Shown: one piece after another, positions 1 through 46,055 of the stretch
Position numbering within the stretch: the first letter of the stretch is position 1
Layout of the letters: every line of letters begins with the position of its first letter
Origin: Neolecta irregularis DAH-3
Taxonomy: Eukaryota
Reading direction: 5' to 3'
DNA length: 46,055 bases
Assembly: GCA_001929475.1 (NCBI GenBank)
Contig: LXFE01000181.1
Coordinates: 1 to 46,055, forward strand
Program-made: the position numbers and the translations under genes
The notes under the pieces: generated by a model
What the model saw: only the letters and a program-made list of their open reading frames with translations
Told to the model about the DNA's origin: nothing
Databases searched by the model: none

Positions 1-46
1 CTCAATACTCAATACTCAATACTCAATACTCAATACTCATCTCATG
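1..46. repeat. (CTCAATA)5 tandem repeat plus CTCAT x2, running into the TyrRS ATG
   Basis: Five perfect CTCAATA units at 1-35, then ctcat-ctcatg; truncated by the window edge. Confidence 0.95.
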
Positions 47-1313
47 ACCCCACAGGAAAAATTCTCCCTCATCGCTCGCAATCTCCATGAAATCCTCGGC
101 TGCGATCACATAAAAGAGGTCCTGGCCCATCGAGATCTCAAACTATACTGGGTACACCCATCCCATCCCATTCTGACCATAGGGCACGGCCCCCACTGGA
201 AAACCACACTGCGGATACTTTGTCCCCATGACAAAAATCGCAGACTTTTTAAAAGCAGGCGTACACGTAACAATTCTCCTGGTAGTCTGCTCTCTCCAGT
301 ACACTAACTCCCAGGCCGACATTCACGCTTTCCTAGATAATCTAAAAGCCCCCTTTGAGCTAGTAAAACACCGCGCAAAGTACTACGAATTCATAATAAA
401 AGCAATCTTGAAAGCAATAAACGTTCCCATAGAAAAACTCCATTTCGTCCTCGGAAGCTCCTACCAGCTCAACCCCGATTTCTCCCTCGACAACTACAGG
501 CTATCTGCTCTCACCACAGAACACGATGCAAAAAAGGCCGGCGCTGAAGTCGTCAAACAGGTCGATAACCCACTATTAAGCGGTCTTCTCTACCCCGGTC
601 TGCAAGCCCTCGACGAACAATACCTAGACGTAGACGCACAATTCGGCGGCCTCGATCAACGCAAAATATTCACCTTTGCAGAAAAATACTTGCCCCATCT
701 CGGTTACAAAAAACGCTCTCATCTAATGAATCCAATGGTCCCCGGCCTAACAGGCGGTGTACCCCCATTCCACATCCCTTCATCTCACCCCCTAGAAAAT
801 GTCCTCCTCAGACGATGCCTCAAAAATTGATATCCTCGACGACGAAAAAACCGTACAGAAAAAAATCGCTAGCGCCTTTTGCGAACCTAGAACAAAAGAT
901 AAAAACGGCGTGCTCGCTTTCGCAGAAACAGTGCTCTTCCCTTTATCACACTTGAACGGAAAACTAGGCTTGCATATCCCTCGACCAGATAAATACGGCG
1001 GCCCCCTAGACTATACTACCTACGCCCATTGCGAAACTGCTTTTCTTGCTGGAGACGTATGCAATAGCATTCGATTCGCTAATTGACTTTTTAGTTGAGC
1101 CCGCAAGACTTGAAACTTGGCGTCACACAAGCTCTCAATGCTCTTCTCGCCCCTATTCGTCAGGAATTTGCTTCAAATCCAGAGTTTCAAACAGCTCTCA
1201 GTCTCGCCTACCCCGCTCCTGTCTCCCACGCTCCAAAGAAGAAGGAAAAGAAAATTGGCACAATGGTTCCAAACAAGGGCAAAGCAAAGATCCACCCGCC
1301 TCCGCAAAATTAG
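44..1313 (+). CDS. TYS1: Cytosolic tyrosyl-tRNA synthetase (4 introns: 152-182, 282-314, 759-795, 1057-1094)
   Basis: Spliced product has [15 protein letters not shown] (HIGH-like), [29 protein letters not shown] and GGKMSSS; basic C-terminal KKKEKK. Confidence 0.95.
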
Positions 1314-1406
1314 ATCAAGCATCAACTTCTCATCGTAAATGATGGGAATTATTTCTTGTATGCTACAAATAGACGCCAGTAACGCACCTCAACCATAATG
1401 CAACCC

Positions 1407-4400
1407 TCAAAATGTCTCCCATCTAAAAAATCAACAGATATCTAAATGCTACACATTTACCCTCCCTGGTCGTAATTCTGCTCAATGTGAGTTGCAACCT
1501 TGGTAGAAATCATTTGCATCAACCATGCATTACGAACGGTTGTCTCATATCGTTTCTGATGTAGAAACAACCTTCGCCCACGCCTTATCGTTAGCAAAAG
1601 ATGAAAAGTACTGCCTACTTAAGTAGGAGGTCAGTCTCGCCATGAGAATCTAAATATGGAGTCGCAGTAAAACAACCTTGAGTTCGAAACAAGTATACTA
1701 AAACAGATTTTTTGATGACCAAGAAGATTCCAACATCCCCACAACAACTACTAGGTCAGAAAACTATCTAATCATTGTAAAAGGATCCCTTGCAGTATGC
1801 TGGTTGCATTCCCCAGTGCCAGTAGAATCTGTACAACATGTGCTTTGAAAACAAAGCACTGTCCCACAAAAGAGACATATAACAGGCTCATTCGGCACGG
1901 AATTGCATTTAGAGCAAACATACTTGCTGCATAATTGCACCAAAATATCAAAATGTTGAGGCAATGGGATGAGGTCAGGTAATCCAGGGTACGCTAATCG
2001 AATAGGTCGTTCGGGTGTTGGTGAAAATCGATCAGACTTGCGTTGGGCCAGCTGTTCGCACCATCCAAAAATTAAACATCTTGTAATTTGGCAGTCATCT
2101 GGTTGCGTAGTAGGCTCTTCTCTGAAAGGAATTACGAAAATCTCTTGCAAAGAAGGAAGATTTAGTTGCACTTGAAGACGAGCAATTTCCGGTAGCTCGC
2201 TCAAGTCATCATTGGCATCTGGTATGGGGCCCTGGAATCTAGCAAATGCGTAAAGAACTGATTTTCGAAGAAAGGGTACGAGCAACTTCTCCAAAACTTG
2301 AAGGAATAAATGCTCGTTCACTTGCTGTAGTCCTAGGGTAGTCAACTTGCCATCACATCCACTCTGAATCAAAAGCAATCGCGTGAAACGAAGGATGATG
2401 GATTCGGGATCCGAATTAGGGGGTTTGGATGATGCGATGATACTCGATAGCGTTCCTGTCTTCTCAACCGCTTCCGCATTGAGCTGCATCCCTAGAGCTA
2501 GGACAATTTTACATACTTTGGCCATATATATAGTTCGCAGTAAATGGTGAAATTCGAATTGCAATGTTGGAGACAGTGCCATATTTACCTGTACCAGAAC
2601 CTCGAATTGGTCTTGTTGCAGTAATGGCAAATATTCAAAAGCAGATCCCTCATCCGGCTCATAAACAAGTGGATGTCCCATGAAGATCTGCTTGAGTAAC
2701 TTTCCGGTGTGGAATATGAGCTCTTTGACGACGGAATTTTCCGGACCTTGCATAGATCCTATACTCGAATAGCTCAATGCGGTCTCACAAAGTATCCGCA
2801 TGAAGGAGAGCGTCGTTTCATTGAGTTTGTTGAGAACAGACACGTCCTGGGAAATTTCATTTGTACGGTGCGAAGCTTCAACAGAGGATAAAGTATAGGA
2901 CACGAGAGACCAGATTTCTTTGATGTTGGCAATTTCCTTGCGCGAATCAGTTGGCTGAGATGAGACAAGATACTGAAGATGGACATATGATTTTGTGACC
3001 ATTTCATCTGTCTCCTGACTACGAGCCGACGAGTTGGCGATGAAGTTTGCAAGAAATGATTCTAATCGATCGCGGGCATTTATTTCAACCCCATGGTCAG
3101 AATCCTCGAAAGCATATCGTATCTTGGCTTCAGTTAACAAGTGATCACTGATTACATCAGAAACATTCTCCAGCATATAGCTTCGCATAGCATCGTGGAA
3201 TCGACGAGAGCTAAGACTGTCTGTCCGTGAACTGGAAGAGCGAGTTACGGCTTTTCGTGATGATAGAGTGCCTTTCTCTAACCGACAAATCGCAGGTGCA
3301 ACAACAGTATTAAGCCAGTCTTCGTAATTTGTCTTCGTCTGAAGTCCATTCGTACAGCCTTCTATCCTTCCTTTCCAGATAATGGGTATGAAAGCATTAC
3401 CAAGACGTTTACATAAAGGACAAAGAAACTCTCCGCGCTTGGTGTTTTCTGGATGATTGCGGTACTGCTGAGCATGACTGCGATCAAGAATATTATTGTA
3501 GAACCTATCAAAACAGTCCGCATGGATAAGATGACCACAACTAGATGCGTTTGCGCCTTTCAAAATATTGTCAGAAGGGAATGACCTTGCGTGTAAATCT
3601 TCGATCGAATGAACATCAGGTATCTCGAGGGCAACTTCGGGTGTTCTCAGGCCTTCTTTCGTCCAGTATGGGTTTTCTAAAGGCATTGTGCGGTTGATGT
3701 TACTTCGTTGAATGATTGATAACGTTCCAAACAATCTCTCATTGCCTGTCTCTTCCTGACATACAATACAAGTACCCTTTGGAAAATTCCAATGAGTTGA
3801 CATAGAATCGTGTTGGGTTGCGACATCGACGTTCTCATCATCACTCATGTCTTCGCAATTTTGGCTCCAAAAATTCTGCTGAGCTTGTTGCATTTGAGCC
3901 ATTGCTCTTTGCTGCCGTTCCTTTGCGAGAATTCTCTTTGCTGCGTCGGACTCAGAGATGCTTTCGTCGGGAAGCATTTCTGAATCTTCGTCACTACTAG
4001 AATTCGTTTGAAGTCGTGAAATTAGCCTCCCAAGATCATTCCTAACTTCGCTAGTAGATATTGATGAATGAACTATTTTGGCCAATTCCAAGAATGTTTT
4101 CGATTCTTCACGAAGACTGCGCGCAGGAAAAGAATAGGTGACGACTCTCTGAGCAAAGGACGATTCTTGCGGCGTAGCCTTGGTACAAAGTATCGCCAAA
4201 TGTGCAACGTCTTGCAACACAGTTCCTGGCAGTTCTCCTCGCACAAGAACACTCGAATGAATGAAATCCAGCGCGAAAAATACCAGTTGCTGCAGAATCG
4301 CCGAAGAGGCTACATTGTCCAGGTTCTCGTAGATGCCGTCTGTGATAGGTTGTAAAGATGGTTCCATGACTAAATTGGGGGTTTTCTTGATCTCCTTTGC

Positions 4401-7762: not shown

Positions 7763-9451
7763 TCAGGGCTCGTGCAATTGCTCCTGCGAAATGCTGTCGA
7801 GTCCCGCTCTAACATCGTTAATAGTTTTGTCGGAAGTTGTGCTATTGGTGCCTATTCTAGTGAACGAATCTCGTCTGGTGGATACATTCCACTTGTAATT
7901 CTGTTCATGGGCGGGCTTACTAGTCAGGTACAGGATAGGACGTGAACATACTACAAGGCGATCATGCTTGCGAGCAACATTTTTCAGGCTTTCGAGGCCG
8001 ATAGCTTCTTCCCGGATAACGGTTGATTGAGTTACAACGACGTTGGTCGCTTTGTTGATCTCATGGTCAGTGATTACTAATAATGCTAAAACGAAACTAC
8101 TCTTAGGTCGTGTGAATCAAGTCCATATGTTAATCCTGGAGCATCCCACGTGTTTGAAATTTTGTTATGCACAGAAGGATTAAGGAGATGTCGTCTCTGT
8201 TCAGCCCGAGCATGGAGAGTAACCTATGATTCAATGATACGATCAGATATACTGAGTACCATAACCGAATGAGTGTAAAGCTTGCCTAAAGATCAGACTT
8301 GGTGGGTCATTTGAATTTACCAAGAGGAAACTGAAGCGCCATGTGAGTCATGTTCTCGGAGCTTTGAGCAACGTAGAACTAGATGGTATGAGAAATGCTG
8401 ACTTGTGGCCAAACATACTATTGTATCTAATACGGCAACAACCGCACTGAGGAACCCAGTTTCCATAGTCAGACGAACAAGTGAGTTCAAGATACTAGAT
8501 GTATTAGAGGGATTAGGAATATTCTTTTCTCTTTTCTACCTGTCTCACAGGGTCAGAGTAAACTGTGGCAAACGATATACCTGTAGTCAAGAATCCTGTT
8601 TTCGACCGATAGAGAAGAATTGTCAACACAGTAGTAAGGCCAACATCAACGACACCTCTGGTCAAATCCAATGGACGATATGAACATACTCGCAGGAACA
8701 AGCCAAACGACGACTTCGACTTTGACATGGGAGACAGTGGACATCCGTCCGACTCTGGCCAAAGCTGCAGCAAGAACAAGGGAACTAATTTGGTAAAATC
8801 TTTGTGTAGTAGATTTCGTACGAGATGAGGCAGAGGATTACGGAAGGCACAAAGATGGCCAAATAGAGCCATCTTGCCGTGGTATGCCGACGCATAAAAG
8901 TCCACGTTCTGTGGATGAAGAACGATTGAACGAGGAAGGCGATCATTCCGTTCAATGCTGGTTCCGTCCAGAAAAGCCAGTTGGTAATATCGAAATAGTC
9001 GAAGTCACCAAAGTGTTTGGCATAGTTCAGGTACAACAAGGAACAATCGCAGCAAGCTAAGCTTGTTCATTGATAAACTTTTGCGGGAATATACTTTGCA
9101 AAACATTTATCACGTAGAGAATCCCGACATACCATTTCATGGATGTTTTGTCTTCCGTGAATATGTGAAAGTAATTCCAGGTTTGCCTGTGGTCAGAACG
9201 AATCACTACAGATGGAGGTACATTGTCAGCATACCCATGAAGAAGATATTGATAATAATGCCCTGTGAAGATATGAGTTTATTCTCAGATAGATAATACA
9301 AGCATATATGCTCCGAGAGAGGCATCTGTATCAGAATAGAAAGCCAAAATCTGATAGTCAAATGTAGCAAGCGTGTAGAGGTTATTACTGAAGAATTGAG
9401 TTGAGCATTACTTTGGGCAATTGCATCAACGAATGCAGGTGCCAGTGGCAT
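7763..9451 (-). CDS. Multi-pass membrane protein, DUF6534-like (about 12-13 introns, including a 4-nt microexon)
   Basis: Spliced product contains LVQSFFIHRTW, WLVPASVVDVGLTTVLTILLYRSKTGFLTTDSILNSLVRLTMETGFLS and GKLYTHSVMVTLHAR, matching my recollection of the DUF6534 consensus. About 7 hydrophobic segments. The 3' end is less certain. Confidence 0.75.
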
Positions 9452-10400
9452 GATAGATTGACAAAGGAATGGACAGGCTGGGAACTAAGCGGTACCCAGA
9501 TTGGAGCTTATATGGAATCATCTCCACTTAATTTGCAGACAAGGGACGATCCCCTCGATCACGATAACAAACGAGCGGAGCATCCGCGACAAACCATTAA
9601 ACATAGCAGACCATGGGGCAGAAGTGTGTTTAGGTCTAGAACAGTGTGGATTACAGAAGGACATTCGTGACGAGAACTACAATCAATGTACGACAATAAC
9701 GTTTGGCCTGGTCTCTGAGTACGTTCTTTGCATGTTTGTACTAGGCGGCTAACTGGAGAGGAGATTGGTGAAAATGACGAGTGGATAGTAGACGGAAACA
9801 GGTTTCACAGCAAAACAGGGATGGCGTAGAAGTATGCGTCCATGAGAATCGCGGCATACAAAGACTAACCGCCATGATGCAACGGAGACTTGTGACACGC
9901 AGGCTGCAAGTCGGGGAGGTTGGGAAATATTTGGATAACTTTTGCTTTGTAAAAACGGTGATAGTTTGAGTGATATGAGGCGGAGAGGGAGAATGGAGGG
10001 TGTGTTGAAGATTGAGCGATAGGGAATGATGAGGTAAAGAGAGAATAAAAGATTGCATGTTCGCTGCTGCAAAAGACTGGCTTCCGGCCCTTACTTATAG
10101 AAAGGAGATAACTCTCATCCCCTTTCTCCTGCAGATAACGTGAGCTACTTATAGAAAGAACAAAATATTAGAGAGAAACTATATAAAAGAGAAAAGCAGA
10201 CGTAGATGCCTGACGCTTATCATATCCTTGATGACAATCGTGTCTGAGATTAGGCCATTTCCTTGACTTCAGTAATGGACAGGTGTTTGTTGAGATAAAT
10301 GTTTGGGTTGTTGTGATTTATTAAAAGAGAGCGTGGGTTTCAAATGTGTTGAATTAGAGTACGGAGTAGCCAAACTAGGAAAAGGGGGAGGAAGATAAAA

Positions 10401-10417
10401 AACCCTAACCCTAACCC
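10401..10417 (+). promoter_or_regulatory. Interstitial telomere-like AACCCTAACCCTAACCC (telobox / AACCCT-box-like)
   Basis: Nearly three CCCTAA-type units in the divergent promoter between the membrane protein and the histidine kinase. Confidence 0.55.
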
Positions 10418-10601
10418 AAAAAGAGGGAGTAAATAGCTGGTGACTTCCGGAGCCGCTTGTTTTTCGGAGGGAGGAATGATAGATGAGAGAGGAAAAGAGG
10501 CAGGTTGTAGGAGCGGTGAGGTTCCGCGGTAAAGGTAATTACTTGAAAAGGTTGTGAAAATTGTCGCAGGAGAATCGGTTCCGAAACGTAGATATCCACC
10601 A

Positions 10602-10639: not shown

Positions 10640-10664
10640 GCCCGAGGTCTATTCGAGGAACGGC

Positions 10665-18227: not shown

Positions 18228-18294
18228 GACATCACTCTGCATTTTTCCACTCGCGTTTTCACCTCAATTTTTTCATTTTGGTTTTGGTTGTTCA

Positions 18295-25487: not shown

Positions 25488-29423
<3,936 letters not shown>

Positions 29424-29487
29424 GAAATGCAAGACCTTTTAAATAAAATAGATGTTTAGACCACCTTTGGTATCATGATTTTCTTTT

Positions 29488-30479: not shown

Positions 30480-30566
30480 TTAACAATAATCGTGGTTACT
30501 TCGTGAAATTAGGCAAAAGTCGCGAATTCTTTTGACTCTGGAGGACTTATTCAACAACCACTTGAA

Positions 30567-32427: not shown

Positions 32428-32887
32428 TATCACGCCTCTGCTACCATGTAGATGAGTGGCTTTCATCGGTATATTCACAAAAGTTGTAGTCAGTCGTATG
32501 GAAACTCTATATTCGCTTCCTGTGATACTTTCTTGCTCAGAAAATGATCGAATGTCATTGAGGAAGCTATTGATAGACCACAAACACGAATAGATAGGTA
32601 ATTGCCTCCTTTAATATAAATTTGCTATCCTCGTCGAGCAATTCTTTAGGAATTTCATTTCACTATAGTAATTATTCATATCAAAGTTGCACCGTTTTCC
32701 ATCATTTTACAAAATTTATGGAGAAAATTAAAAAAGTATCAAAATCATGCAATCTATCTTTCCTTTGATTGAAGAGCAGTGGTAATTACTTATCACTGAT
32801 ATTCGTGTCGATAAGCTTAAAGGTTTTCGAAAAAGGTACAATCTGATATCTTGCAAAAGGTATTCGGTCGAGGATTAACAGCCTTTT

Positions 32888-33059
32888 TGTAAGTTGTAGG
32901 ACGAAAGTATAAATAAGACAAAGGTTTATTCGCTAGCCTAGTATTGTATACTTGGCTTGGTATATATATCTTATCCTCCCATTATAAATACTTTGCTTTT
33001 AATGGCCCAAAATTATCCTACGCCTCGTTGCCGTATTAGTAAAACGGTATATCCTTACA
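32888..33059 (+). mobile_element. Solo-LTR-like element, copy C
   Basis: Perfect 6-bp terminal inverted repeat TGTAAG/CTTACA; flanks CCTTT(T)/CCTTT approximate a 5-bp target-site duplication. Confidence 0.65.
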
Positions 33060-33669
33060 CCTTTCGAGTGCCAAATATTACTTTACTACTCTTTCGCTTA
33101 GTTTCTCCTATTTTTCAAGAAATAGAAATATCAAGTCCAGTTTAGAGCCTTTGAGTCATTCTGTCAACTCCAACCATTTGAACCTGCTTGCTGACAAAAC
33201 TCTCCAACCATTATGATTCGTCTAGAAAATCGAAAGTATCTCGAAGCTACCGGTCGCCTTGCTTTATTCTAAATTATACGTTTAGCTTTTTCAGTAGTCT
33301 TGTATCATCGAAGAAGGAGTTTACAACCCAAAAAATATCGCACTTGTGTTCTAAACTATTGTTGGTTTTCGGTCGTGATGTCCACCCTCAAAGCTCTCAA
33401 GTTGAAAAAGATACAAGCAGTTTCTCTTGTGTATCAATACAAATATATCACAAATGTTTAATTTTCTCTGGCTTTTAAACTCAGTTAAGCATATGTATAA
33501 TAGCACTTTGCACGATACTGGAGGCACATTAACTTCCAAACCGAGCGACATCCACTCTTCCTCCATCCACCTTCCCATACGGCATTATCTGTTTCGCGTC
33601 TAAAACAAAAGGCTCCTTAGTATATTTCACTTTTCACATCACAAAACTTTCGCGCGGTAAGCGTTAGCA

Positions 33670-35570
33670 ATGTCGGGGCCGTTAGATCTTTCCATGGGTA
33701 GTCCCATCGCGAAATCTCTGCAGGTGTTGATCCTCTTTTTTTTGTTTCAATACCAATGCTTCAGGATCTGATTCAGGCGAAACTTGTTGAGCGCAGATAT
33801 ACGACAGCTGATGGTTTTTATATTCTTGGCATCTTAAGCTAGGGAGACTGACTTTTCAAGATTCATCTCAGTTTGCAGAGTTCATCACCGTTATGGTTTG
33901 CTTGCTCCGCTTGAGATGAAAGCAGTAACCTTTCTTAGATATCAAATGGGAAAAATAGACAGCAAGTATCGGTAGAGTTAGGAGACCGTATGGGTTTTTG
34001 AATGGTGGTTTTAATCAATTAGTCATCGGGCCAGAGTTCGACATTGCGTTCACAGAATGGATATTTAAACAGCTCGAAATATTGCAGTACCCACAAGGCA
34101 ACGGAGAAATTCGGGACGAGACAATAGGCTCAGACCAAATGGATATGGATATTACACCTGGAGGTAAACCCTCTCGCGGAACCGCGCGTTCAAATCCATA
34201 CCCCGCACCAAGGTTTTTCAATCAAATTACCAAATCCATGGAGAGATCAACTTCATCGGATAGAAGACGCCGGTCTCCTCCAAATGTTAGCCCCAATCTA
34301 AGCACGGGGATTCCCACTGGTCCCCGTGCTATGAGGGAAGATCAGCCGAATGGACATCGCAATGTCAGACGGTATAATAACCAAGGCCCGCTTCGAGGAC
34401 CTATGGGAAATGCGAAATTACCATATACGAGTATACCACCACAAGTCGAGAATGGGTTTTTGATCAATCCAAATTTCGGGAGAAACCTACATGAACGAAT
34501 GGGATTGCCAAATCCAGATGAGAACCTCACTGTCGTTACACCAAAACCTAGGTGTCGACATTGGCCTACCTGCCAACTAGGCGCAACCTGTAAATTCTCC
34601 CATCCATCACAACTATGCCAGTAATTTTTTCCTGTTTGAAGTATTGCTGATTTTCTCAAGGAAATTTCCAAATTGTCCGAATATGACAGGTACATGCCCA
34701 GACATTCATCCAGATGATCAAATATTGCAACAACCGCCATCGAGTTTCCAAGTGCCCTTCAACAGTAATCCGTTTCCACAGATGAATCAGTTCAATTCAG
34801 GCCCCTTCCAACCGCCATATTCGTCATTCCAAGTAAAAACTTTTGTTCCGCCGGTTCATCATGTCCCAGATCTTGGTCAGAAAGATCTCAAAGGAGACAG
34901 CCCAGTCTGTAAATTTGCAGATAAGGTATTTATTTTTCGTGTCAACCCAGAGTTAACATTTCCAGTGCACTAAAGCTGATGTATGGAATATATTCTTGCA
35001 GTACTTGTTGACTCGTTAGTGCCCATTCGCTCACCCAACTCCTGCTGCGGAGCCTGGAAAGGGTTTGATTTTAAGAGAGGAAAGATGCGATGCTGGAAAA
35101 CAATGCAGCAACCCCGAAGTACCTGTTTTCCAGAACCATTCCGCTGATTAATAGTGCGATAAAGTTCATCCATCACCAGCTATCCTGACTGAAACCTCTA
35201 CAAATTCTCAAGAAACGTGCAAATTCTTTCCCAACTGCAAGAACCCTTCATGCACGTTTAAACAGTATTTTGCCATACATCATATCCCGACTCACAAATT
35301 AGCGAGGCAACAAAGGTTCCAGTTCTTTGCCGTAATGGAGAAAATTGCACTCGACCCGGCTGCCACTTTATTCATCCGATCCCGGTAAAATGCCGGTTTG
35401 GAGTTCGGTGTACCAATGAAATCTGCCATTTCCAGCATCCGGAACGAGCACCGGTGGTGAGCAGAAACATGGTTTGGAGAGCAGAAGACCATGTTAGTGA
35501 ACGGCCTTTTGCTGCCCCAAGCTCAACAGAAACCTTGGCAGTAATCAAGGATGAGGTAATGGTCGAATAG
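33670..35570 (+). CDS. NAB2: Nuclear poly(A)-binding CCCH zinc-finger protein Nab2-like (9 introns, 15-nt microexon)
   Basis: N-terminal PWI-like region (FAEFITVMISNGKN..FTEWIF) and seven CCCH fingers after splicing, e.g. CRHWPTCQLGATCKFSH, CKFFPNCKNPSCTFKH, CRNGENCTRPGCHFIH; C-terminal HVSERPF. Confidence 0.85.
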
Positions 35571-35711
35571 ATAAAATGATTGGAGAAAAAGAACTGGCTT
35601 TCCTATGTGTATAATAAAATTGGCATTTATGCTTTTGCAATCTACCGAATCCATTTGGAGCAGATTTCGCAAAAAGATTCCTAGACATCCACCAAATATC
35701 TCCACACTGCA

Positions 35712-38700
35712 ATGAAGAAGCCCAAAAAGAAAGGAACAGATTCTTTGCGCAAACATCAAGTAAATAAAAACGAAATCCAGACGATATATGCCAACGTCAA
35801 TAGTTCAAATCGTTTTCGCAGAGAATCGACAATATCCATATTGATGTATCACACCATATCAACCGTCGCATTGATGATGAAGATCACGTAAATTCTGTCG
35901 CGCCTTCTCATCTCATTAGCTATTCTAGTATGCTTCTTATTTTCAAGAGGCCTTAGAATCATGGACTGGATTAAATCTTACGACAAATTTTGTCATGTTC
36001 CATCGCGAGGTACGGGATTTATCTTCAACGTTCCCTCAGCTCCTCTACAACAAAGATCGCGTGGTTGATTTATTGGAAAAATATATTTTGAAAAAAGACC
36101 CACTTTCTCTGCAGCCATTTCTAGAGTATTCATACTTTTTCGTTTGAAAGGATTAACGCAAAGTTTGACCGTGCAACTTATGCGAGATTTTGGTGCGGAT
36201 TCCATGAAATATTTTGAACGGATCATGTCTCTATTGATAGAGCTGGTTTGCGTCCAAGAAGCTGAGACTCTGGAGGTATATTATCCACCTGTGGTGTGAT
36301 AAATTAACGGTCTGTAGCAAATCTTTAGCTGCCTGGCGTCAATATTCAAATTTCTGTCGAAGTATCTTGTTCCAGATCTTCCAAGAGTCTTTGAGTATAT
36401 TATCTCATCTCCAATATTAAAAGCTGAAGAAAAGTATTATACACCCACTCCTTGGCTCTACAAAACAAAAGTCGTTCGTTTCCAGATTCGCTTCCGAAGC
36501 TTTTGCCTTTTTGCTTAGAAGAGCAAGATCCCTGCAAGTGATCGCTTTTATACAACATATAGTTCGTTTCATTGATTCAAACACCCCGGAAAGGCTCATC
36601 ACAAGCGTCTCAATGATTCTTGTTGATGCCGCAAAGGTAATAGCAATTTCACTTTCACCCAAACTTATTTTTAGGGTGCCAATCGAACTTTGCATTCTCG
36701 AGCAACAGATCTATTCGCCAACCTTCTGCAGTGTCAGCAACGGACTGGTATATTCGTTGAATGGACCCATTCTTAAAGTGTAGTACAACTAAATACAATA
36801 ACGTCCAATTTCTTCATCGCCATCCTGAATTTTACCGAGAAAATTCCACTCCAACCACTTATTGTCACATTGGTCGAACAAATTGAAAGATGGAAAGACT
36901 TTTCTGAACTGTGGTCTTCGCAAGGCGAGCTTTTAATCGCTCTTGCTTTGGTGCTGGCGACCTTGAGAAATGGAAATCGTATAGCGGATTGGAGCCAGAT
37001 GGCGGATTTGTGCATTTCGGTTATGGATAAATGCAGGTTTTCTGATGAATTATCGATTCGAGCGTTACTATGGGCGACTGCTATTATTCATTATTCGGAT
37101 TTTCAAACAGTGACAAAAGAAAATAGTGGCTTACTTGATGCTATTCAATCATCTTTAGTAATGCATGGTCAACGTATATTACTAACCATTTCATAGGATC
37201 CCACTTTCTTCATTTCATTCTCTGGTCTTTTGGCCGAGAGGTCGCCTGAGAGATTCACCAATTTTGTTCTCCCAGCCCTCCATCGGTACAGAATATATGC
37301 CTAGATTATACTCATAACAGATTTATAACCGAGAACTGGGCTGAGCAAACCGAACGGATCAAATTACTGTTAATTCGACTACGTTCTCGGGGCATGTTAA
37401 AAGCGGGCAGCGTGTCGAAAATACTTGCAGCTAACGGATCACTGAAAATTTCATCCGGTCATCCATTAATCATTGAACTATCGAACTTTCTCGCCGAGTT
37501 ACAGCGAGAAATATCAAATAAAAATTTCGAACCATCGCAATTCATGGACTCAGCTGAAAAATTGAGTGCTATATGTCTCAATTTTGAATTTATGAAGACA
37601 ATTTCATTTCCAGTCGAATCCTTTCGCGATAAACTGATCAGTCTTATAGTAATGTTGTTCCAAATCGAATCAACGGCAAGTAATACGTCCTCAATCGGAT
37701 TACTCATTGGAAAATTATCAAGTTGTTTATCACATGTTTCAACAGTCGAACCTCCAATAAAATTCGAATTGCCACATGACCTCTGCTTTTCCATGTTAGC
37801 AGGTACAAGAGTCCATGGCCGCAATACAGTATTTCTACAAGGACTTTTTGAAATCATATGTTGCAATCCTGACAATTTCGAGATCAGTGAATCTCAGCTG
37901 ATTGATATCTTGCGAGATTTGGACAGAAATCTAGCCCTACCCGGAGGCCATAGGAGATCATTGACTCTAAGAGTCCTCAACTCAGTGTTTCGTATCGCTA
38001 GAAAATCCGAATCTACTGTCTTGTCTACATGTCAGGCCATCGCAGATTCTCCTCTCGACATCGCCTCTGCTCGGAATGTCTCGTTGCTCTTGCGTAAACT
38101 GCGCACTGAAAGCCTTCTCAGACTAGATGTGTGCTTGGCTCGTGTTTTGCCATTATTTTGTTTCGGTATATCCATCTAGTTATTGAAGTCGCTCATACGA
38201 CAGGAACTTTACTGGTGAATTTCACACCGATCTGGTCTGATGCTATCAAATCAATAACTCATATGGCCGAAAGTTCACCAGAGTTGATCTGGGAGATCAT
38301 TCAGCACCAGCTGTGCGACAAAATGGAAGATCAACTTAGCTTGACGTTGCACAATTCAATTTCAGAGCAACAGAATTCACAGGAAAACTATGGCGATTTG
38401 TCCATGTTTCACTGCATTGAATCAGAGAAGCTTTTTGCTTTGGGAAAACTCTGGCAGAATCTAGCCTTGAAAAATGCTGGAGATTGTCTCAATGTATCAT
38501 TATTAGAACACAATGGCAATACTTATGACATAGATTTCAGAGGACGACTCTACTAACTCACCCGATACGAGATCACAAGCCTTGAAAGTGCTGTTAGAAA
38601 TCCCACATTTCGCAGAGAAATACACGAGAACTCTAGTACCTATCTTTATTCAGCAATTCGAAGAGCAGGCTTCAGGTATCTTAAATCGCTATCCAAGATT

Positions 38701-41700
38701 GACATAAAAGACACGGATGATGTAGAGATAGAAAGCTCCACCAAAGTAACATGGTCTCGGCGCGACAAGATCCAACTGTTAACCATCTTCTCAAAGGTTT
38801 GCAATCCAAAGGCGTTGTTCCGAACAGACGAGGTCAGAGCAATCTTGACGCGCTTACTGGCTAACGCCGACTCCAAAGTCCAGTCTATCGCTCTTGAAGC
38901 CCTTTTATCTTGGAAAGATCCTCAAATCAAGCCCTATATTAAGAATCTCCGCAACTTTCTAGAAGAATCGAAATTTCGAGACGAAATTACGAAACTCTTG
39001 GTAGGTGATCTCCGAGAGTCGGTGATTCAAGATGCACATCGTGATGTCCTAATGCCGGTTATTATTCGTCTGCTTTACGGGAAAGCTCTTTCTCGAAAAC
39101 ATTCTTCGAGTGGTGAGAGGTCCCAGGGAAGTCGTAGAATCACTATTCTTTCTGCATTGGTGAATTTACGAGAGTCCGAATTAGGTGTCTTTATATCTCT
39201 AATGCTCGAACCTTTCCAAGATGTACACATATTCTGCTGTGTCGATACAATTGTCAAAGTAGACGAGCTGCAACTCAATCTTCATGCTGATTTGGCCCTT
39301 CGAAAACAAGCCGGTTTTACTGCAATGATGTGCGATGTCATCCATCAACTTGGTTCCAAGCTAACAAACTCTCTACCGCGACTCTTGGAGATGTTGTTAT
39401 TCTCTTTAATAAGGGCGCAAACCGTAATAGATTCATCCGATAAAGACAATACGGATCGAAAGATCGCTCGCAACATTCGGCAATCAGGTTTCAAGGCATT
39501 GCATAGCCTTTTTGAACACTGTCCAAATTTTGACTGGTTAAATTATATGCCAGTAATCTTTGAAAGAATAGCCAACCAGCTATTGGAGAAGTTTCCAATT
39601 GAAACTTCGCAGTCTCCATCGGGACTTTTGCAATTATTTGGATCTTGGGCGTCATCCAACATATATATCGAATTCCTTGTGCGGTACAACCCGCAAGTGC
39701 TACGACAAATTATCAGATGTCTTCACAAGCACGCAAAAGATAATGTCGTGGCCTTTGTGCTGGATATATTGTTCAATGTTTTGCACTACGTGAAAGAAGC
39801 TCAAGAGGACGGAATGGAAGTGGAATCACGTCAAAATCTTCTTGTCGATCCCTACACGACCGATATACTGGAACAAATAGCTGTACTATTCAACGAGACA
39901 TCAGTTTTACAGGATGCTTCAAGGGTTGTGTTGCTAAATTCAGAAATCAAACTTCTTTCCTGTATTTCGGAATATGTCCATGAAGCGCGGTCGGCTGAAG
40001 TGCTGGTTAGTCTCCTAATACCGTTGCTCGAGCGTCCCGTATCAAGAGTGTCTGAAAGAACAAAAGAGGACATTCTGAAAATAGTCATTCGTTTCCTGCC
40101 AATGTCACAAGAATTTGATCAGGATGAATCGGTGCGAAAAAAGTACTTTTCGACAATCTGCTCTTTATTCGCCTCGATCAAAAATCCAGGTTCTCGGCTG
40201 TTTCTTTCTGGACTGCTTGGTTTATTTGCAGAGAAGATTGATGGTCTTGAACCAGCGGAGAGATTCGTCACCGAGTTTAATTCTACTTCGAAAAAACGTA
40301 TCGGCGAACCTGATTATGACCGGCGCTTCAAAGCGTTCTCGAGTTTGAATGAGGTCGAATACGCAAAGATATCATATATTTCGTGGGTTCCGATCGTTTT
40401 TAACATGTTATACTATATTCAAGACGAAGAACTTTCTGTCCGGAGCAATGCTTCATTCTCTCTGCATCGCTTTGTCGAAATGATGGCTCAGCATGATTCA
40501 GAGTATTCAACGTTCTTCCGCGATTCTATTATCCCTGCTCTGAGAAAAGGCTTTAGACACCCCTCGGCGAATGTACGGGAAGAATATCTGGGGGTTCTTG
40601 GTCACGCCGTTCGATATTGTCAACCGGATTTCTTGATTGCAGATTTGAAAGTCCTCCTTCGTGGCGATGATGAGGAGGCCAACTTTTTCAACAACGTTTT
40701 TCACATTCAGCAGCACCGAAGGATAAGAGCATTAAATCGCTTAGCAGAGACATCTAAGCATAAAATATTTTCTTCTGAAAATGTAGGACAGTTGCTTATT
40801 CCGTTGATTGAAAACTTTGTTTTGCATCCAGAAAAAGATACACATAACCTAGTAACGGCAGGGATTGATGTGATTGGAGCATTGTCGAAGAATTTGACAT
40901 GGAAACAGTACCGTGCCCTTTTCAAACGTTATGTCGATCTTTTGGAAAGAAAACCCGAGTCCACAAAAGTCGTGATCAGATTACTGGAGAGTATTGTCGA
41001 AGCCGTTTCTCAATTTTTCATCTTGGAGGGTTCCTCTGATGCCCTGGATTATGGTACAACTATTCGACAAGATCATGCGCTTGATCGAGCGGTGTTGCTA
41101 AAAGTTGTCACAAAGGATCTTTTTCCCAAACTTTCTTCATATTTGAAGAAGCGCGATGATTCAACTGTCAGCCTACGAGTCCCCGTTGCCGTCGTTCTTG
41201 TGAAATTATTGCGGTTACTGCAAGACGATGAAATTAATCTCATGCTTCCAGCAGTCTTGACAGATGTATGTCATATCCTCAAAAGCAGATCGCAAGTTGA
41301 TCGAGACCTCACGCGAAAAACGCTTGCGGAAATTGTACAACTTCTTGGTCCCCGATATATGGAGTTCATCGTCAAAGAGTTACGTCAGGCACTTTCGAGG
41401 GGGTATCAGTTACATGTCCTCGCATATACACTCCATTCACTTCTCGTCAAGATTTCAGAATGCAACAGAATCGGAGATTTAGATTACTGTATGCCGGCTT
41501 TAGTAGAGATCTTGATTAATGATTTATTTGGAAAAACTGGCACTGAGAAGGAAGCTGAGGATTACAGATCGAGTATGAAGGAAGTAAAAACCTGCAAAAG
41601 TTACGATTCTTTTCAACTACTCGCTTCGCGAACCATGCCATCACAACTCTGCGATTTCATCCGCCCGATAAAAGATGTCCTGCTCGAAACTTGCTCGGTT

Positions 41701-43962
41701 AAGGTTTTCAAAAAGATTGACGAAGTGTTGCGGAGAGTTGTACTGGGTATCTGTGAAAATTCATCGTCCGAGTACCAAGAGATTATTGCCTTTTGCTATA
41801 AATCATATCAGGAGGGAATATCAGCGGACATGAAGTCTTCAGAAGGAGTAATACCTTCTCATGAACAGCATTTCACAGTCGACTTGAAGGGCCACAGACG
41901 TCATTTGCGTATCGTCAACTCTGATGTGACGAGGATCGCCAAATTTGCTCTCGACACTCTGCGAAGTATTTTAATCAAGCATGAAAAGCTGCGAACAGAT
42001 GAGTACGTATCTCGATTTGTTCCAATTCTAGGGGACTCGTTGCTGTCGTCATTTGAAGGACTGGCTTTGTCTGCATTACGTGTGTTGAATACACTAGTAT
42101 CTAGTTCTGTTCCGTCTTTGGATAAAGGAATGTCAGTCTACCTGGACCAAGTTCTTCAATTTGTAAAAGCTTCAACGAATACGAATTCCGAATTATGTCA
42201 AGCGAGTCTCAAGTTTGTTGCGACCGTCTTACGAGACCGACCGACCGTCTTCGTACAGGAAGAATTAGTCGTTTACCTGCTCGAACGAATTAAACCTGAC
42301 ATTGAGCAACCTGATCGCCAAGGCCTGACGTTTTCTCTCATCAAATCAGTCATGGCGCGAGGCTTGGTCATCCCAGAATTGTACGACTTGATGAGCCAAA
42401 TCGCGCGAATGATGGTTACGAATCAGACTAGAGGTGCTAGGAATATCGCTCGAACAGTCTACTTTCAATTTCTTCTGAATTTTCCACAGGGAAAAGGTCG
42501 CTTGCAGAAACAGTACGATTTTCTTGTTCAGAATCTGAGTTATGTATATCAGTCTGGTCGGCAATCGGTCATGGAAGTTGTTCATTTAATACTTGCAAAG
42601 TTTTCCGGAGACTTGCTGCAAGATGTAATTGAGAAGGTGTTTCTTCCGCTCGTGATGTCATTAGTCAACGATGACGCTAACGAATGTCGAGAGATGGCGG
42701 CCTCGTTATTGCAAACGATGATGCGCAAGGCAGATAAACAGCGGTCCGAGATGATTTTGAGAACGATGCGGCAATGGGTTGATGATTTTGAACAACCGAG
42801 TTTGCAAAGAACCGGTCTGGAGCTTTTTGGACTCTACTTTAGTACCGTGGAATCGGTGAAGGATGCCGAGCGCTGCGCTGATGTTATCACCAAACTTTTG
42901 AAAGGCGTCAAGTTTGATGACAGTACTATTGATGAAGCTACGTTGGTGCCTATAGGCTGGGAGACTATCTTCCACGCACTGCACACATTCTCTAAAATCG
43001 TCAACATGGCTCCGTCAATTTCATTCAGTGAGAAATATATTGAACTGTGGCAGGAATTTATACGCTATACTTTATACCCATATGGTCTTGTCCGTCTTGA
43101 AGCCAGTCGACTGGTAGGTTCGTCGTTCGTTTACTGTAAGGATAGTGCTCCTTTGTGGAAAGTCTCCGAAATGATCCAGTTGGCCAAGAAACTCTTTTTT
43201 GTGCTTCAGAGCGCAGAGCTTTTGGATGATCTCGCTTTGCAAACTGTGAAGAATCTCATGTTTATCAGTCAATGGGCGTACAAGACTAAAGCAGAGATGC
43301 CTCTTCAAGGGCTGTCTTCCTGTGTAGACGACCAACACAGCGATGATGAAGAAGAACAGGAGAATATCACAACGGACAGTCTTGAATGTATATCGTGGAT
43401 ATTTATGCGAATATCAAAATTTCTTCGGCACGAACAAAAGGGAAACGAGGTATGATTCTTTGAAGGGTGAAGGCTGACTACAAGTACACGTTAATTTCAC
43501 GCAAGCTTTTGTTGCAGTGGTTACTGACAATGATTGGAATTATTTCCGCCCAAGAAATCACCTCAAACTCTCGTTATATATTTTCTCCTCTATTCCGGTT
43601 CGTAGATACGCCGTCAGGAAAGCACGCAGAGGGTACGCAAACAAATTAAACGCTTTATTAATTTTAGAACTGTTGAATCTTTCGCAAGAGATATTTGATG
43701 CGCTTAAGATCAAGTTGGGTGTGACTGTATTTACCCAATGTTATTCAGAAATCCGGCAAAAGGCAATTGACCGACGACACGACCGTAGACATCAGCGCGC
43801 GGTACAAGCCGTCACTAAGCCTGAATTCGCTGCGAAACGGAGACTAAAGCGGGGTGAACAAGTGCGTTTTTGTGTTGTTTTCTGTTCTAATTGTAGAAAC
43901 GCGATTCGAGGAAGCGCAAAGCTGAAGCGTTTCAAGAATTTCGTAGACGTGGGTTTAAATAG
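35712..43962 (+). CDS. UTP20: U3 snoRNP / SSU processome HEAT-repeat protein Utp20 (about 15 introns)
   Basis: HQFKSFSQRIDNI, WTGLNLTTNF, DEEANFFNNVFHIQQHRRIRAL, RGYQLHVLAYTLH, NLSYVYQSGRQSVME, C-terminal RRHQRAVQAVTKPEFAAKRRLK. Confidence 0.93.
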
Positions 43963-44260
43963 ATATCAAATAGATATCGCGGTAGTCAGCTTGTAGAATC
44001 GGCAGGCAGCAATCAGAGTAGGTAACAGGTAAAGATAAGAGATTAAAAAATGACAGACGGATAAATAACCAAATGTAGGATAATCAACGTACAAGGATTC
44101 CAAGCGAAAAAGGATAAATATAGAAAAACAAAGCATTCATGTAAAACAAACCTTTCAACATATTTTATGTTTACCAATGTAAATATTTACATTTCTAAAA
44201 CAAAAAAAGAAAAAGGAGGAAAGCATGACGAAGAGAAGGACGACGTATATCGACTAATCC

Positions 44261-45964
44261 ATGACAACATCCACAACAAGCAATCAACCCGATTTCTTAC
44301 AACCGGTAATTTCATTATTTGATTGAAGAGCAAGATATTAAAAGAGGTAGGGATTTGATCCGGGGAAGTGTACTGTACCTAGACTTCGTGGTATTTTGTT
44401 AGAATGGGAGATCGATTTCAAATCATCTGCTCGGAAAGGGGAGCTCGTGGAGTTGTACAAGGAACATGTAGCGCCTGCTATTGAATTGATGAGACGACAG
44501 AGGCGCGTGGATACAAGGAGAATCGAGGATCCTATAGAAAGTGACGAGGATCCTGCAGAGAGGATAGTACCGCCTATTCGTCGGTCTAGTCCGAGAAAAT
44601 CTGTGCGTACTGCAGTGCAGTCTGAATCTAGAGGACGTCCAAGTCAAGTGAATACTGAACGAGTCAAGAAAAAGGTAATCTCGGTTTGGATGGTTCTAAG
44701 GAAAAGGAGGTATTTTCTGATTATAACCCATTTCAAACACCTCCTGCGGGTGTGACTGTGTCGCGAAGAAAGGTATGATGGAAAGAGAGTTTATTGATTG
44801 TTAGACTTTTGGTACAGCAATCGATCAAGGGAATAAAGAGGAGGTAATTCAGCAGAAGCGACATATTGAGAATGAATCCGAGACTGAATTTGAACCCGAG
44901 CCTGAATTACCAACCGGCTTTTCAATGCAAAGACGAAAACAATCCCATACGACGCGGAATGCCTTCTTTTTGGTTCTTGTATCAATACTTGCATTAGGAG
45001 TTTATTTATGGAGGAGTGCGAGTATTGCAGCAGGATATTGTGGAGTGGAAGAAACGACAGAGCGAGGTAAATTGACCGCTACAATAACAATTAATGGCAG
45101 TATATGGGGTTTTGGCAAAATGCAAAGAATGTCCCACTCACGCAAAGTGTTTTCCAGGCCTGCGCGCAGAATGCGATCCGGGGTTTGTGCGCGTCGACGA
45201 TTTGCGCAGTTTGATTGGAGTGGCCAGGCCGGGATGTGTGCCTGATCGGGAAACGGGGCGCCGGGTGGCGGCGGTGGCTGACGAAGCTGTGCGGATTCTG
45301 CGGGAAGCCCGCGCGGTGTCTGGGTGTGGCGCAGTGAAGACGGCGGCGGTGGCGGAAGACGCGATTGAAGCGATTCTGATGCGCCGCAAGGCTGTACGTG
45401 GCTGTGCCAGCTGGTACTGATTTGCAGTCTACAGTATCGGATCAACAGCTTTCAGCACTTTGGAAAGAAGCATTTCAGTTTGTATGTGGGCGGCCAGAAG
45501 TAACTGTGCGCAGACAAGAGTGGGCATTCTGTGATATTAATGCTGATAATAGCGGACAGGTATTCCTCGAGAGCAGTTCTCGGGCATATATTTCGTTGAG
45601 ATGCCTGTTCAAACAGATGCTGCGTGCGTGTGTGGTGCCTGCGGGTGCTGCAGTGCTTTTAGCAGTTGTTGGCGCAGGAATATGGCGGTGTAGTGCGCAA
45701 AGGAGACTGGAGAATGGGCGAGTGCGGATGCTGGTGCGGGATGTTTATGCGCGACTGGCACAGAAGAGACGCGACGGAACACAGACTGGGGCAATTTCTG
45801 TAGCACAACTGCGAGATGCAGTACTTGCTGAAATGGACATTAAACAGCGAAGACGGCTGTGGCAGGCAGTGCAGCAGATTGTCGAGGACAATGCAAATGT
45901 ACGAGCTCGCCAGGTGGAACTACGGGGAGAGATCACGCGTGTATGGGAGTGGGTGGGAGATTAG
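44261..45964 (+). CDS. Inner nuclear membrane protein, Src1/Heh1/Man1 family (HeH and MSC domains; 6 introns)
   Basis: DFLQPGFDPGKCTVPRLRGIL..ARKGELVELY (HeH/LEM-like), FSDYNPFQ motif, TM segment then GYCG, CKECPTHAKC..CDPGF..CVPD, second TM, QLRDAVL..LWQAVQQIVEDNANVR..GEITRVWEWVG. Confidence 0.9.
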
Positions 45965-46055
45965 TGAGACGAGTATGAGTGAGATGATATGAGTGAGTAT
46001 GAGAATGAGTGAATACGAGCAAGTAGAGTGAGTGAGTATGAGAATGAGTGAATAC
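45962..46055. repeat. Degenerate TGAG-core tandem repeat including a 27-nt perfect direct repeat (45990-46016 / 46029-46055)
   Basis: Units GAGT, GAGTAT and GAGAAT; tgagtgagtatgagaatgagtgaatac occurs twice, 39 nt apart; truncated by the window edge. Confidence 0.9.

Follow-up and report, generated by a model that had tools for sequence, protein, structure and literature searches.

The two ends of the 46,055-nt window (the whole stretch of DNA analyzed here) probably mark places where a short-read assembly broke in simple repeats beside two ordinary genes with lopsided G/C content, and not the ends of a chromosome. Assembly would have halted in low-complexity repeats, a G-free heptamer array 5´ of a tyrosyl-tRNA synthetase (TyrRS) gene at the left end and a C-poor minisatellite 3´ of a Src1 gene at the right end, and the opposite G/C skews would be a property of these two terminal transcription units rather than marks of molecule ends. 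An earlier note on this DNA had read the same ends as telomere-like; overall, its interpretation was partly supported.

Gene content and terminal repeats

The window carries ~14 genes, mostly housekeeping, and its makeup is that of ordinary fungal nuclear DNA, probably from an ascomycete. Besides TyrRS and Src1, the genes include UBR1, a hybrid histidine kinase, a phosphoglycerate-mutase-family gene, E2, RLP24, fumarase, SMC5, an exosome RNase PH subunit, a DEAD helicase, Nab2, and UTP20, whose protein has 36% identity to its closest match. Introns measure 31-47 nt across the window, as confirmed by spliced contigs, and searches of the entire window found no tRNA and no Rfam family. CpG depletion or a RIP-like signal was rejected, given an observed/expected CpG ratio of 0.97 window-wide and 1.0-1.3 in the skewed zones. 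G+C is 0.47-0.62 in these zones versus 0.43. The coordinates of the features considered below are given in Table 1.

Table 1. Features of the window, with positions counted from its first base.
Feature	Position	Strand	Description
G-free 5´ leader of TyrRS	1-43	+	(CTCAATA)x5.6 at 1-39, then CTCATCTC, stopping 1 nt short of the ATG
Cytosolic tyrosyl-tRNA synthetase (TyrRS) CDS	44-1313	+	Pfam tRNA-synt_1b, E 6.6e-35
TyrRS exons (five)	44-151, 183-281, 315-758, 796-1056, 1095-1313		
Left skew domain	1-1500	.	GC skew about -0.3, AT skew about +0.15
Interior G-rich domain	8781-10580	.	+ strand skew +0.249
C-biased stretch of the hybrid histidine kinase	11663-13157	+	Four-fold skew -0.54, -0.48, -0.69 in three consecutive bins; Pfam AAA_16
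Right skew domain	43600-46055	.	GC skew +0.1 climbing to +0.4
Src1/Heh1-type inner nuclear membrane protein (Src1) CDS	44261-45964	+	HeH/LEM and Man1-Src1p C-terminal domain (Pfam HeH 6.9e-9; MSC 1.4e-35 and 5.3e-20)
Src1 exons (six)	44261-44305, 44351-44674, 44707-44772, 44805-45066, 45101-45393, 45428-45964		
C-poor imperfect TGAG-rich repeat	45965-46055	+	Directly after the Src1 stop; 4 C/91 nt

The contig's first base falls inside the TyrRS leader repeat, and because the ATG lies only 44 nt from the left end, the TyrRS promoter must lie beyond the contig start. The leader contains no G in its 43 nt, the G-free run spanning 1-45, and a dimer of the CTCAATA heptamer occurs only once in the window, at 1-35. 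The spliced TyrRS CDS is open over 376 codons, with introns of 31-38 nt; its product matches TyrRS proteins at identities reaching 86%. Five alternative frames at the left end gave no domain in a Pfam search, and an exact search of metagenome contigs with the 46 nt adjoining the left repeat gave 0 matches. A literature search for the CTCAATA heptamer together with telomeres yielded oligonucleotide coincidences among the matches listed, which does not imply that the combination is absent from print.

At the right end, the Src1 CDS also is open, and its introns 1-3 are confirmed by spliced contigs of a sequencing run, X2. The repeat that follows contains an exact 26-mer twice, at 45991-46016 and 46030-46055 (spacing 39 nt), and the contig terminates inside it. 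Ten - strand frames under Src1 contained no Pfam domain. The observation in the earlier note that the terminal repeats adjoin an ATG and a stop was accurate: the left array ends 5 nt before the ATG at 44, and the right repeat begins directly after the TAG at 45962-45964.

Strand skew at the ends and in the interior

The base counts on which the earlier note built its case are exact (21 C and 10 G at 481-540; 28 G and 14 C at 45241-45300), and we could confirm a C-rich left end and a G-rich right end (1.4 kb at -0.30 and 1.8 kb at +0.28) as the extremes of the window. The left 1400 nt have a GC skew of -0.298, a value reached by only 3 of 4,466 sliding windows, all starting at 1-21, while the interior minimum is -0.147; the right 1800 nt, at +0.280, are the maximum of 8,852 windows. 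Each is the most skewed stretch of its size in the window. The skew is sustained, with all 14 of the 300-nt windows starting at 1-1301 between -0.18 and -0.37 and all 16 of those starting at 44201-45701 between +0.14 and +0.40 (window-wide SD 0.13). As rough context only, 1400-nt windows with an absolute skew of 0.28 or more numbered 277 of 5,881 in a set of 42 metagenome loci 5 kb or longer; they came from 9 of the loci, and the other 33 had none.

Skew limits track transcription-unit limits at both ends. The left domain consists of the TyrRS transcription unit and its 3´ flank and tails off before the convergent UBR1 gene (CDS end at 1764); the right domain starts in the last UTP20 exons, dips in an A-rich spacer at 44000-44200, and spans Src1 and its 3´ repeat. 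TyrRS is C-rich and G-poor along the whole gene (GC skew -0.32 in the first 300 nt), and Src1 is G-rich and C-poor along the whole gene (+0.37 in the last 300 nt and +0.78 in the 3´ flank). A check suggested in the earlier note, of skew at silent sites, was run, and the skew was present at four-fold and intron sites of both genes. The four-fold sites of TyrRS comprise C81 A54 T36 G9 (GC skew -0.80) and its intron interiors C42 G7; the corresponding counts for Src1 are G90 A81 T61 C30 (+0.50) and G36 C14. At two-fold sites, A/(A+G) is 0.70 in TyrRS and T/(T+C) is 0.75 in Src1, with about 0.61 for both in the interior.

The description of the two ends as mirror images stood for GC skew, which is opposite at the two ends, but not for AT skew, since the + strand has more A than T at both (four-fold A54:T36 in TyrRS and A81:T61 in Src1). 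An AT skew that is not mirrored points to a cause tied to the coding strand and away from a mirror-symmetric one. The two most skewed of the 14 genes are the two end genes, for which simple arithmetic on 91 pairs gives a chance of about 1/91. That the end genes are the most skewed needs an extra assumption if the ends are assembly breaks, namely that skewed units carry assembly-breaking repeats.

As a yardstick, we used the interior genes. Four-fold sites pooled from 27 interior exon segments comprise C802 G603 (skew -0.14), with AT slightly negative (A1021:T1112), and ten interior introns contain C54 G48. The four-fold skews of TyrRS and Src1 each lie ~3 SD from those of the 27 segments (mean -0.17, SD 0.22), and this amplitude, together with its extent and the lack of a gradient, speaks against assembly breaks beside genes with gene-linked skew. 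Gene starts were approximate in the tallies of flanks and spacers, our own gene finder having returned partial models; with that limit, 9 of the 12 interior genes have a C-bias over the 200 nt upstream of their start, with values of -0.21 to -0.38 at SMC5, Nab2, E2, and HisPhos. A general 3´ G-bias was not seen among the same 12 genes, another observation against that reading: the mean skew is 0.00 in the 200 nt 3´ of the stop and +0.02 over the final 300 nt. In UTP20, four-fold sites of the last exon have a skew of +0.47. Of the 12 interior genes, 8 are G-richer on their right side than on their left (Wilcoxon p 0.47), and 8 of 13 spacers switch from G to C (p 0.11), both with approximate gene starts, such that the expected independence from gene orientation is right in direction only, a further point against.

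Strong coding-strand C-bias is not limited to the contig ends, as the stretch of the hybrid histidine kinase at 11663-13157 shows. Between this + strand gene and a - strand DUF6534-like gene sits the interior G-rich domain, and this divergent spacer is a G-to-C switch. On its - strand, a CTCA-rich G-free tract (about 9960-10060) comes after two TATAAGT-like boxes (+ strand positions about 10090-10160), and the + strand has C-free runs at 9982-10055 and 10281-10331.

Gene-linked skew has been reported in fungi. According to the published account (PMC3315797), 5´ ends and promoters are C-biased and 3´ ends and 3´ UTRs are G-biased, the skew also appears at four-fold sites and extends into promoters and 3´ UTRs, and coding-strand AT skew is positive and uniform, with GC skew rising from 5´ to 3´ within the gene. 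The assertion in the earlier note that transcription bias cannot explain the skew was therefore wrong. Compared with that account, TyrRS, as a 5´ end, is C-biased and Src1, as a 3´ end, is G-biased, both obeying the sign rule; both have a positive coding-strand AT skew that does not reverse with GC skew; and the bias is found at four-fold sites and in the non-coding parts of both units (PMC3315797). Unlike the genes described there, the end genes are skewed over their full length without a gradient and with large amplitude (-0.8 and +0.5 at four-fold sites), and no 5´-to-3´ rise was observed in the six genes examined here (rho of skew versus position 0.09 in TyrRS, -0.01 in Src1, 0.01 in UBR1, 0.06 in the histidine kinase, 0.00 in SMC5, and 0.09 with p 0.058 in UTP20). 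The interior genes follow the 5´ part of the published pattern weakly and the 3´ part hardly, and the organism is not known as unicellular.

Two other known systems were compared. C exceeds G around transcription and translation starts in plants and some fungi, upstream of start codons (Fujimori et al., 2005; PMC555766); the G-poor, C-rich coding-strand leader of TyrRS and the upstream regions of SMC5, Nab2, E2, and HisPhos are similar, although the start-site peak described there covers about ±100 bp and the skew here 1.4 kb. Core promoters of filamentous fungi contain a TATA box along with a tract rich in pyrimidines (PMC9703631), to which the interior - strand tract 3´ of TATAAGT-like boxes and the TyrRS leader, composed of C, T, and A only and abutting the ATG, are alike; the tracts here differ in being tandem or quasi-tandem CTCA-based repeats.

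On the reading of assembly breaks beside genes with gene-linked skew, the genome has a general coding-strand excess of C over G, greatest toward 5´ ends and promoters, with the 1.3-kb TyrRS gene as the extreme case. The right end coincides with the 3´ end of a gene on the + strand, a position at which G-bias is reported to set in for fungal genes. The combination of 5´ C-bias and 3´ G-bias would make the left side of the + strand rich in C and its right side rich in G regardless of gene direction, so that any intergenic contig cut would tend to telomere-like polarity. The skew itself may be caused by a transcription-linked asymmetry of mutation or repair; judging by base composition, TyrRS may have lost G and gained C, and Src1 may have lost C and gained G. 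Left-end skew is well explained in this way, and the whole-gene G-bias of Src1 only partly.

Telomere features and the read graph at the right end

Telomeric repeats of eukaryotes include the TTAGGG type and the irregular repeats of yeasts. The window resembles a telomere-bounded molecule in that the G-rich strand is oriented 5´ to 3´ toward the right end, the C-rich strand begins at the left end, and short repeats lie at both extremities. In contrast to telomeres, the two ends carry differing repeats of low copy number with a continuing read graph, and these repeats adjoin housekeeping genes, with skew extending 1.4-2.4 kb into unique coding DNA. The proposal that the ends have a CTCA core in common in inverted orientation held for the core itself: with 6 occurrences in the left 43 nt and 11 in the reverse-complemented right 91 nt, CTCA is the most frequent 4-mer of each tract (base shuffles of the right tract average 0.98, with 0 of 10,000 reaching 11). 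It did not hold beyond the core, since the two tracts have two 7-mers and no 8-mer in common, and the units are unlike, a perfect CTCAATA heptamer on the left and an irregular repeat with 39-nt spacing on the right. Of 140 inverted-repeat pairs, the 25 longest include no long terminal inverted repeat linking both ends, and the sole TTAGGG-type repeat in the window is interstitial (10403-10420). With differing repeats, an interstitial TTAGGG-type repeat, and abutting housekeeping genes, telomere-like, resected, or origin-bounded ends and a small linear chromosome are unsupported.

De Bruijn graph assemblies break at repeats. In a read comparison covering 26056-46055, the right part of the window, the main contig (402.6x) of a k=31 assembly of DNA run X1, possibly the window's own source and hence not an independent assembly, ends at 46019 within the right repeat, its break lying within 36 nt of the window's right end. 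Two short pieces covering 45990-46055, of 46 and 53 nt, reach depths of 2937x and 1896x, corresponding to 7.3 and 4.7 copies, and the 53-nt piece extends 3 nt beyond 46055. A 716-nt contig (682x), which could derive from another copy of the right repeat, has 46006-46042 in common with the window and then diverges into a similar C-poor repeat; from the X1 contigs, the repeat seems to extend ~0.7 kb. Molecules thus do not appear to end at the right repeat, and its copy number does not match that of all chromosome ends. Multi-copy words at the contig end coincide with a k=31 break, as in repeat-induced breaks, which likewise give contig ends a few tens of nt into a tandem repeat, short pieces of high depth, and branching continuations. 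We noted no difference from such breaks at the right end; at the left end, the likeness is based on the pure 39-nt heptamer array at base 1. The telomere-like right end proposed in the earlier note is not supported given the break, the multi-copy pieces, and the contig running on, and the more mundane possibility it had named, a contig breaking at repeat islands, is what the evidence favors.

Alternative explanations and meaning

It is unlikely that the ends are mirror-image initiation zones, with CTCA-rich G-free tracts as transcription starts and the first ~2 kb C-rich on the RNA-like strand. The left zone would give rise to the TyrRS mRNA; at the right, a - strand transcript from or beyond the repeat would cross Src1, leaving it passively G-rich, and the published fungal 3´ G-bias would in fact be a C-bias at the 5´ ends of antisense units. 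All three CTCA-rich tracts, at 1-43 (+), about 9960-10060 (-), and 45965-46055 (-), have a C-rich domain downstream in their own direction, the three domains are of similar length (about 1.5-2.8 kb), and the interior tract lies 3´ of two same-strand boxes as in the filamentous-fungal core promoters described in PMC9703631. Because the interior genes lack a general 3´ G-bias, the sign of Src1 also would need a special cause. However, the sample is only three tracts, CTCA is no general leader motif (0-1 occurrences upstream of the other 12 genes), ~0.7 kb is long for a leader, and in Src1 the AT skew goes with the gene's own coding strand. Run X2 is labelled "DNA?" yet yields spliced contigs, which reveal neither strand nor level; contig depth over Src1 in this run (77-102) is not above that of the spliced contig (87.5). 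With no excess of summed depth over the spliced contig, no abundant unspliced second Src1 transcript is evident in the sample, and no antisense RNA was seen, though contigs cannot show strand. The more general form, in which kb-scale strand-asymmetric domains (four-fold skew 0.5 to 0.9) are nucleated at CTCA-type G-free initiation tracts, Src1 lies inside an antisense domain, and fungal 3´ G-bias is the footprint of downstream divergent or antisense initiation, appears rather improbable.

Gene-specific composition, whether from translational codon selection, amino-acid content, or chance, with position being incidental, would be a still more doubtful source of the skew. The Src1 protein has a high content of Arg, Ala, Val, and Gly, and this increases G at first codon positions; 3 of 37 metagenome TyrRS loci (of 70, with 33 omitted as short or intron-broken) are strongly C3-biased, with GC3 skews of -0.48 to -0.51. 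In 28 of these 37 orthologue loci, however, GC3 skew is within ±0.25, and a conserved TyrRS-specific C-bias was rejected. Codon selection cannot be the cause because introns and flanks have the same skew. A preference for A- over G-ending together with C- over T-ending codons is not known as the usual optimal-codon pattern in fungal codon usage, and TyrRS favors A over G (55:23) as well as C over T; the low chance that both end genes would top the 14 also counts against this explanation. That the ends are true boundaries, as telomere-like termini, resection hotspots, or fixed origins where a single-stranded 3´-ending strand leads to mirror mutation bias in a 46-kb unit or small linear chromosome, is highly improbable. 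The polarity fits, G- or C-free repeats with a common CTCA core lie at the very ends, which are also the two most skewed stretches, and depletion at two-fold sites is roughly mirrored. Against such boundaries stand the perfect heptamer on one side and the irregular repeat on the other, the read graph passing the right end at 4.7-7.3 copies, far below a repeat of all chromosome ends, the interstitial position of the only TTAGGG-type repeat, conserved housekeeping genes 44 nt and 91 nt off the ends, the unmirrored AT skew, interior domains nearly as strong, and raised G+C, the reverse of the expectation from cytosine deamination.

Assembly breaks beside two genes with gene-linked skew are mainly a caution: where GC skew is linked to genes, a contig cut between genes would tend to have a C-rich left side and a G-rich right side, however its genes are oriented. 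Telomere-like polarity at contig ends therefore is no evidence of chromosome ends; the check proposed in the earlier note, whether other contig ends have the same polarity, would not discriminate between telomeres and gene skew. The residual interest is the amplitude, with 9 G at 180 four-fold sites in TyrRS and the reverse bias in Src1 43 kb off. If such amplitudes are common genome-wide, the organism would be well suited to work on mutation asymmetry linked to transcription.

Gene content and transcript-like contigs

The window is compact nuclear DNA of a fungus, probably an ascomycete, with 43% G+C across its 46,055 bases and tiny introns (31-47 nt). We assembled reads (k = 31) over the right 20 kb, 26056-46055, from the DNA run X1 and from X2, a run labelled 'DNA?'. 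Many introns are borne out by spliced X2 contigs. Over 26056-46055, the X2 contigs lack introns at GT..AG borders, as expected if X2 derives from the organism's own RNA or cDNA, and they differ from the window at no letter. The best protein match to TyrRS has 86% identity (71-76% for named fungi), and the closest protein found for UTP20 has 36%.

Genes identified from Pfam scans of the window's open frames
Gene	Position	Strand
Cytosolic tyrosyl-tRNA synthetase (TyrRS)	44-1313	+
UBR1-type N-recognin	1764 to about 7536	-
DUF6534-like gene	about 8130-8872 or further	-
Hybrid histidine kinase (AAA_16, GAF, PAS, HisKA, HATPase, receiver)	about 10665-18156	+
Histidine-phosphatase-family gene		-
E2 ubiquitin-conjugating enzyme		+
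RLP24		+
Fumarase		+
SMC5		+
Exosome RNase PH subunit		-
DEAD helicase		+
Nab2		+
UTP20	about 36421-43996	+
Src1/Heh1-type nuclear envelope protein	44261-45964	+

In Nab2, a spliced X2 contig omits 94 nt (34926-35019) but retains 15 letters between, which points to a 15-nt micro-exon between two very short introns. A small dispersed repeat seems to lie between the DEAD helicase and Nab2 genes (32920-33042). Short pieces of this spacer (21 and 35-37 nt) recur, with 3 mismatches, in other X1 contigs (13.9 kb and 1.2 kb), X1 and X2 both have loose ends at 33008 and 33042, and tRNA and Rfam scans gave no match there. A single 5,844-nt X2 contig (39861-46019) spans UTP20 and Src1 minus their introns, including the 264-nt spacer. 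The RNA-like material thus contains the spacer, through either transcriptional read-through or UTRs that overlap, though the contig, as an assembly, does not prove a single UTP20-Src1 transcript.

Terminal repeats and contig ends

Positions 1-39 are filled by (CTCAATA)x5.6, reaching within 5 nt of the TyrRS ATG (44), and a C-poor, TGAG-rich repeat containing an exact 26-mer twice (45991-46016 and 46030-46055) begins directly after the Src1 stop (45964). CTCA is the commonest 4-mer, with 6 copies in the left tract and 11 in the reverse complement of the right tract, a count reached by none of 10,000 shuffles of the latter. The likeness does not go beyond this inverted CTCA core, described in the earlier note: the two tracts have only two 7-mers and no 8-mer in common. 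No long inverted repeat linking both ends was present among the longest 25 of 140 inverted pairs listed. We also noted (TTTTGG)x15 at 18276-18366, where the histidine kinase and histidine-phosphatase genes converge; the array sits in a C-free run of 76 nt. The + strand histidine kinase gene is thus a second one followed by a C-free repeat, yet the contig is unbroken there.

The main X1 contig (402.6x) ends at 46019, within the right repeat and 36 nt before the window's end, in line with the more mundane alternative in the earlier note, a contig breaking at these islands; X1 is possibly the window's own source and hence not independent. Two short X1 pieces cover 45990-46055 at 2937x and 1896x, corresponding to about 7 and 5 copies, one of the two extends 3 nt beyond the window's end, and a 716-nt X1 contig (682x) matches 46006-46042 with one mismatch before continuing into further C-poor repeat. 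A de Bruijn graph commonly looks like this where a tandem or dispersed repeat has tangled it; for a repeat capping every chromosome, 5-7 copies at the right end are far too few. At the left end, a TyrRS ATG 44 nt from the edge leaves no room for a promoter, so the DNA must continue leftward. The window's only TTAGGG-type repeat, (CCCTAA)x2.5 on the + strand at 10403-10420 (mean in shuffles, 0.04 matches), is interstitial, lying upstream of the histidine kinase where promoters diverge; it may act as part of a promoter, and it hints that the organism's true telomere repeat could be TTAGGG. With a right-end read graph that runs on, a low repeat copy number, an interstitial TTAGGG-type repeat and an unmirrored AT skew, the telomere-like reading finds no support.

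Strand skew at the two ends

Base counts reported previously for 481-540 and 45241-45300 were exact on recount. GC skew in the first 1400 nt is -0.298 (C>G), as low in only 3 of 4,466 sliding windows, all at the left end, compared with an interior minimum of -0.147; in the last 1800 nt it is +0.280, the maximum among 8,852 windows. Skew is present at both the synonymous and the intron sites, where its absence would have counted against the earlier note: C to G counts are 81:9 at four-fold sites and 42:7 in intron interiors for TyrRS, and 30:90 and 14:36 for Src1, compared with 802:603 at four-fold sites of 27 interior exon segments and 54:48 in 10 interior introns. Since the RNA-like X2 contigs agree letter for letter over 26056-46055, the skew is no artefact of sequencing but genuine and evolutionary in origin. 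Codon selection or amino-acid content cannot account for skewed introns and flanks. The amplitude of the skew is high but not unheard of, since 9 of 42 unrelated metagenome loci reach comparable values over 1.4 kb. TyrRS orthologues are mostly unskewed, with 28 of 37 loci within ±0.25 and three GC-rich loci near -0.5 (33 of 70 loci were omitted as short or broken). The window's most GC-rich stretch, 45100-45400 (62% G+C; observed/expected 1.29 for CpG and 0.27 for TpA), lies inside the Src1 exon for the first part of the Man1-Src1p C-terminal domain.

If a process worked inwards from both ends and treated the strands symmetrically, base composition at the right should be the reverse complement of that at the left; single strands at telomeric or break ends, or flanking origins, would give C>G and A>T at the left and G>C and T>A at the right. 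Opposite GC skew, the part of the mirror-image proposal that held, was not accompanied by a reversal of AT skew: left and right alike, the + strand has more A than T (four-fold A54:T36 in TyrRS, A81:T61 in Src1). Skewed zones also have higher G+C (0.47-0.62 vs 0.43), whereas cytosine deamination of exposed strands would lower it. Given that both end genes are on the + strand, an AT skew that tracks the coding strand while the GC sign flips indicates a gene-linked cause.

Probable gene-linked asymmetry

According to McLean and Tirosh (PMC3315797), in most fungal genomes studied the coding strand has excess C at the promoter and 5´ end of genes and excess G at the 3´ end and 3´ UTR, also at four-fold sites, with a flat, positive AT skew; Fujimori et al. 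(PMC555766) describe, for some fungi, C>G ahead of the start codon. As the left end is the 5´ end and the right end the 3´ end of + strand genes, the skew signs and AT behaviour fit the pattern of McLean and Tirosh. Such biases give a C-rich left and G-rich right on the + strand for either gene orientation, and contigs cut between genes would thus tend to telomere-like polarity.

The published 5´ pattern fits within the window. Four-fold sites of the interior genes, pooled, have a skew of -0.14; 9 of 12 interior genes have a C-biased coding strand over the 200 nt preceding the start; and three consecutive bins of the histidine kinase (11663-13157) have skews of -0.54, -0.48 and -0.69. TyrRS, a gene of only 1.3 kb, represents the extreme form of this general tendency. 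In the divergent spacer 8781-10580, the + strand has a G excess close to that of the right end (+0.249). On the - strand of this spacer, a G-free tract rich in CTCA comes after two TATAAGT-like boxes, matching the TATA-plus-pyrimidine-tract promoter layout described for filamentous fungi (PMC9703631). The TATAAGT-type box forms a direct repeat of ~12 nt on the - strand (10090-10104 and 10146-10160, 56 nt apart), and the boxes (10090-10160) lie upstream of the CTCA-rich tract in the - direction.

The published 3´ pattern fits poorly. Mean skew of interior genes is 0.00 downstream of the stop and +0.02 in the last 300 nt, within-gene trends are near zero (rho 0.00 to 0.09), the prediction that ignores gene orientation comes true, without reaching significance, for 8 of 12 interior genes and for 8 of 13 spacers, and the only interior counterpart to Src1 is the last exon of UTP20 (+0.47). 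Consequently, the sign of the Src1 skew, and with it the whole-gene G-bias, is only partly explained. Were transcription to initiate at the CTCA tracts, a divergent or antisense RNA with its start at the right end or farther out would place Src1 inside the C-rich first ~2 kb of a - strand unit; all three CTCA-rich tracts in the window (1-43 on the +, about 9960-10060 and 45965-46055 on the - strand) have a C-rich domain downstream in their own direction. We consider this unlikely. The unstranded X2 contigs gave no sign of an abundant unspliced second transcript, and the other 12 upstream regions contain 0-1 CTCA each. Gene-linked strand asymmetry, the reading we prefer, is already known, and the window is a new, rather extreme example of it at a contig's broken ends.
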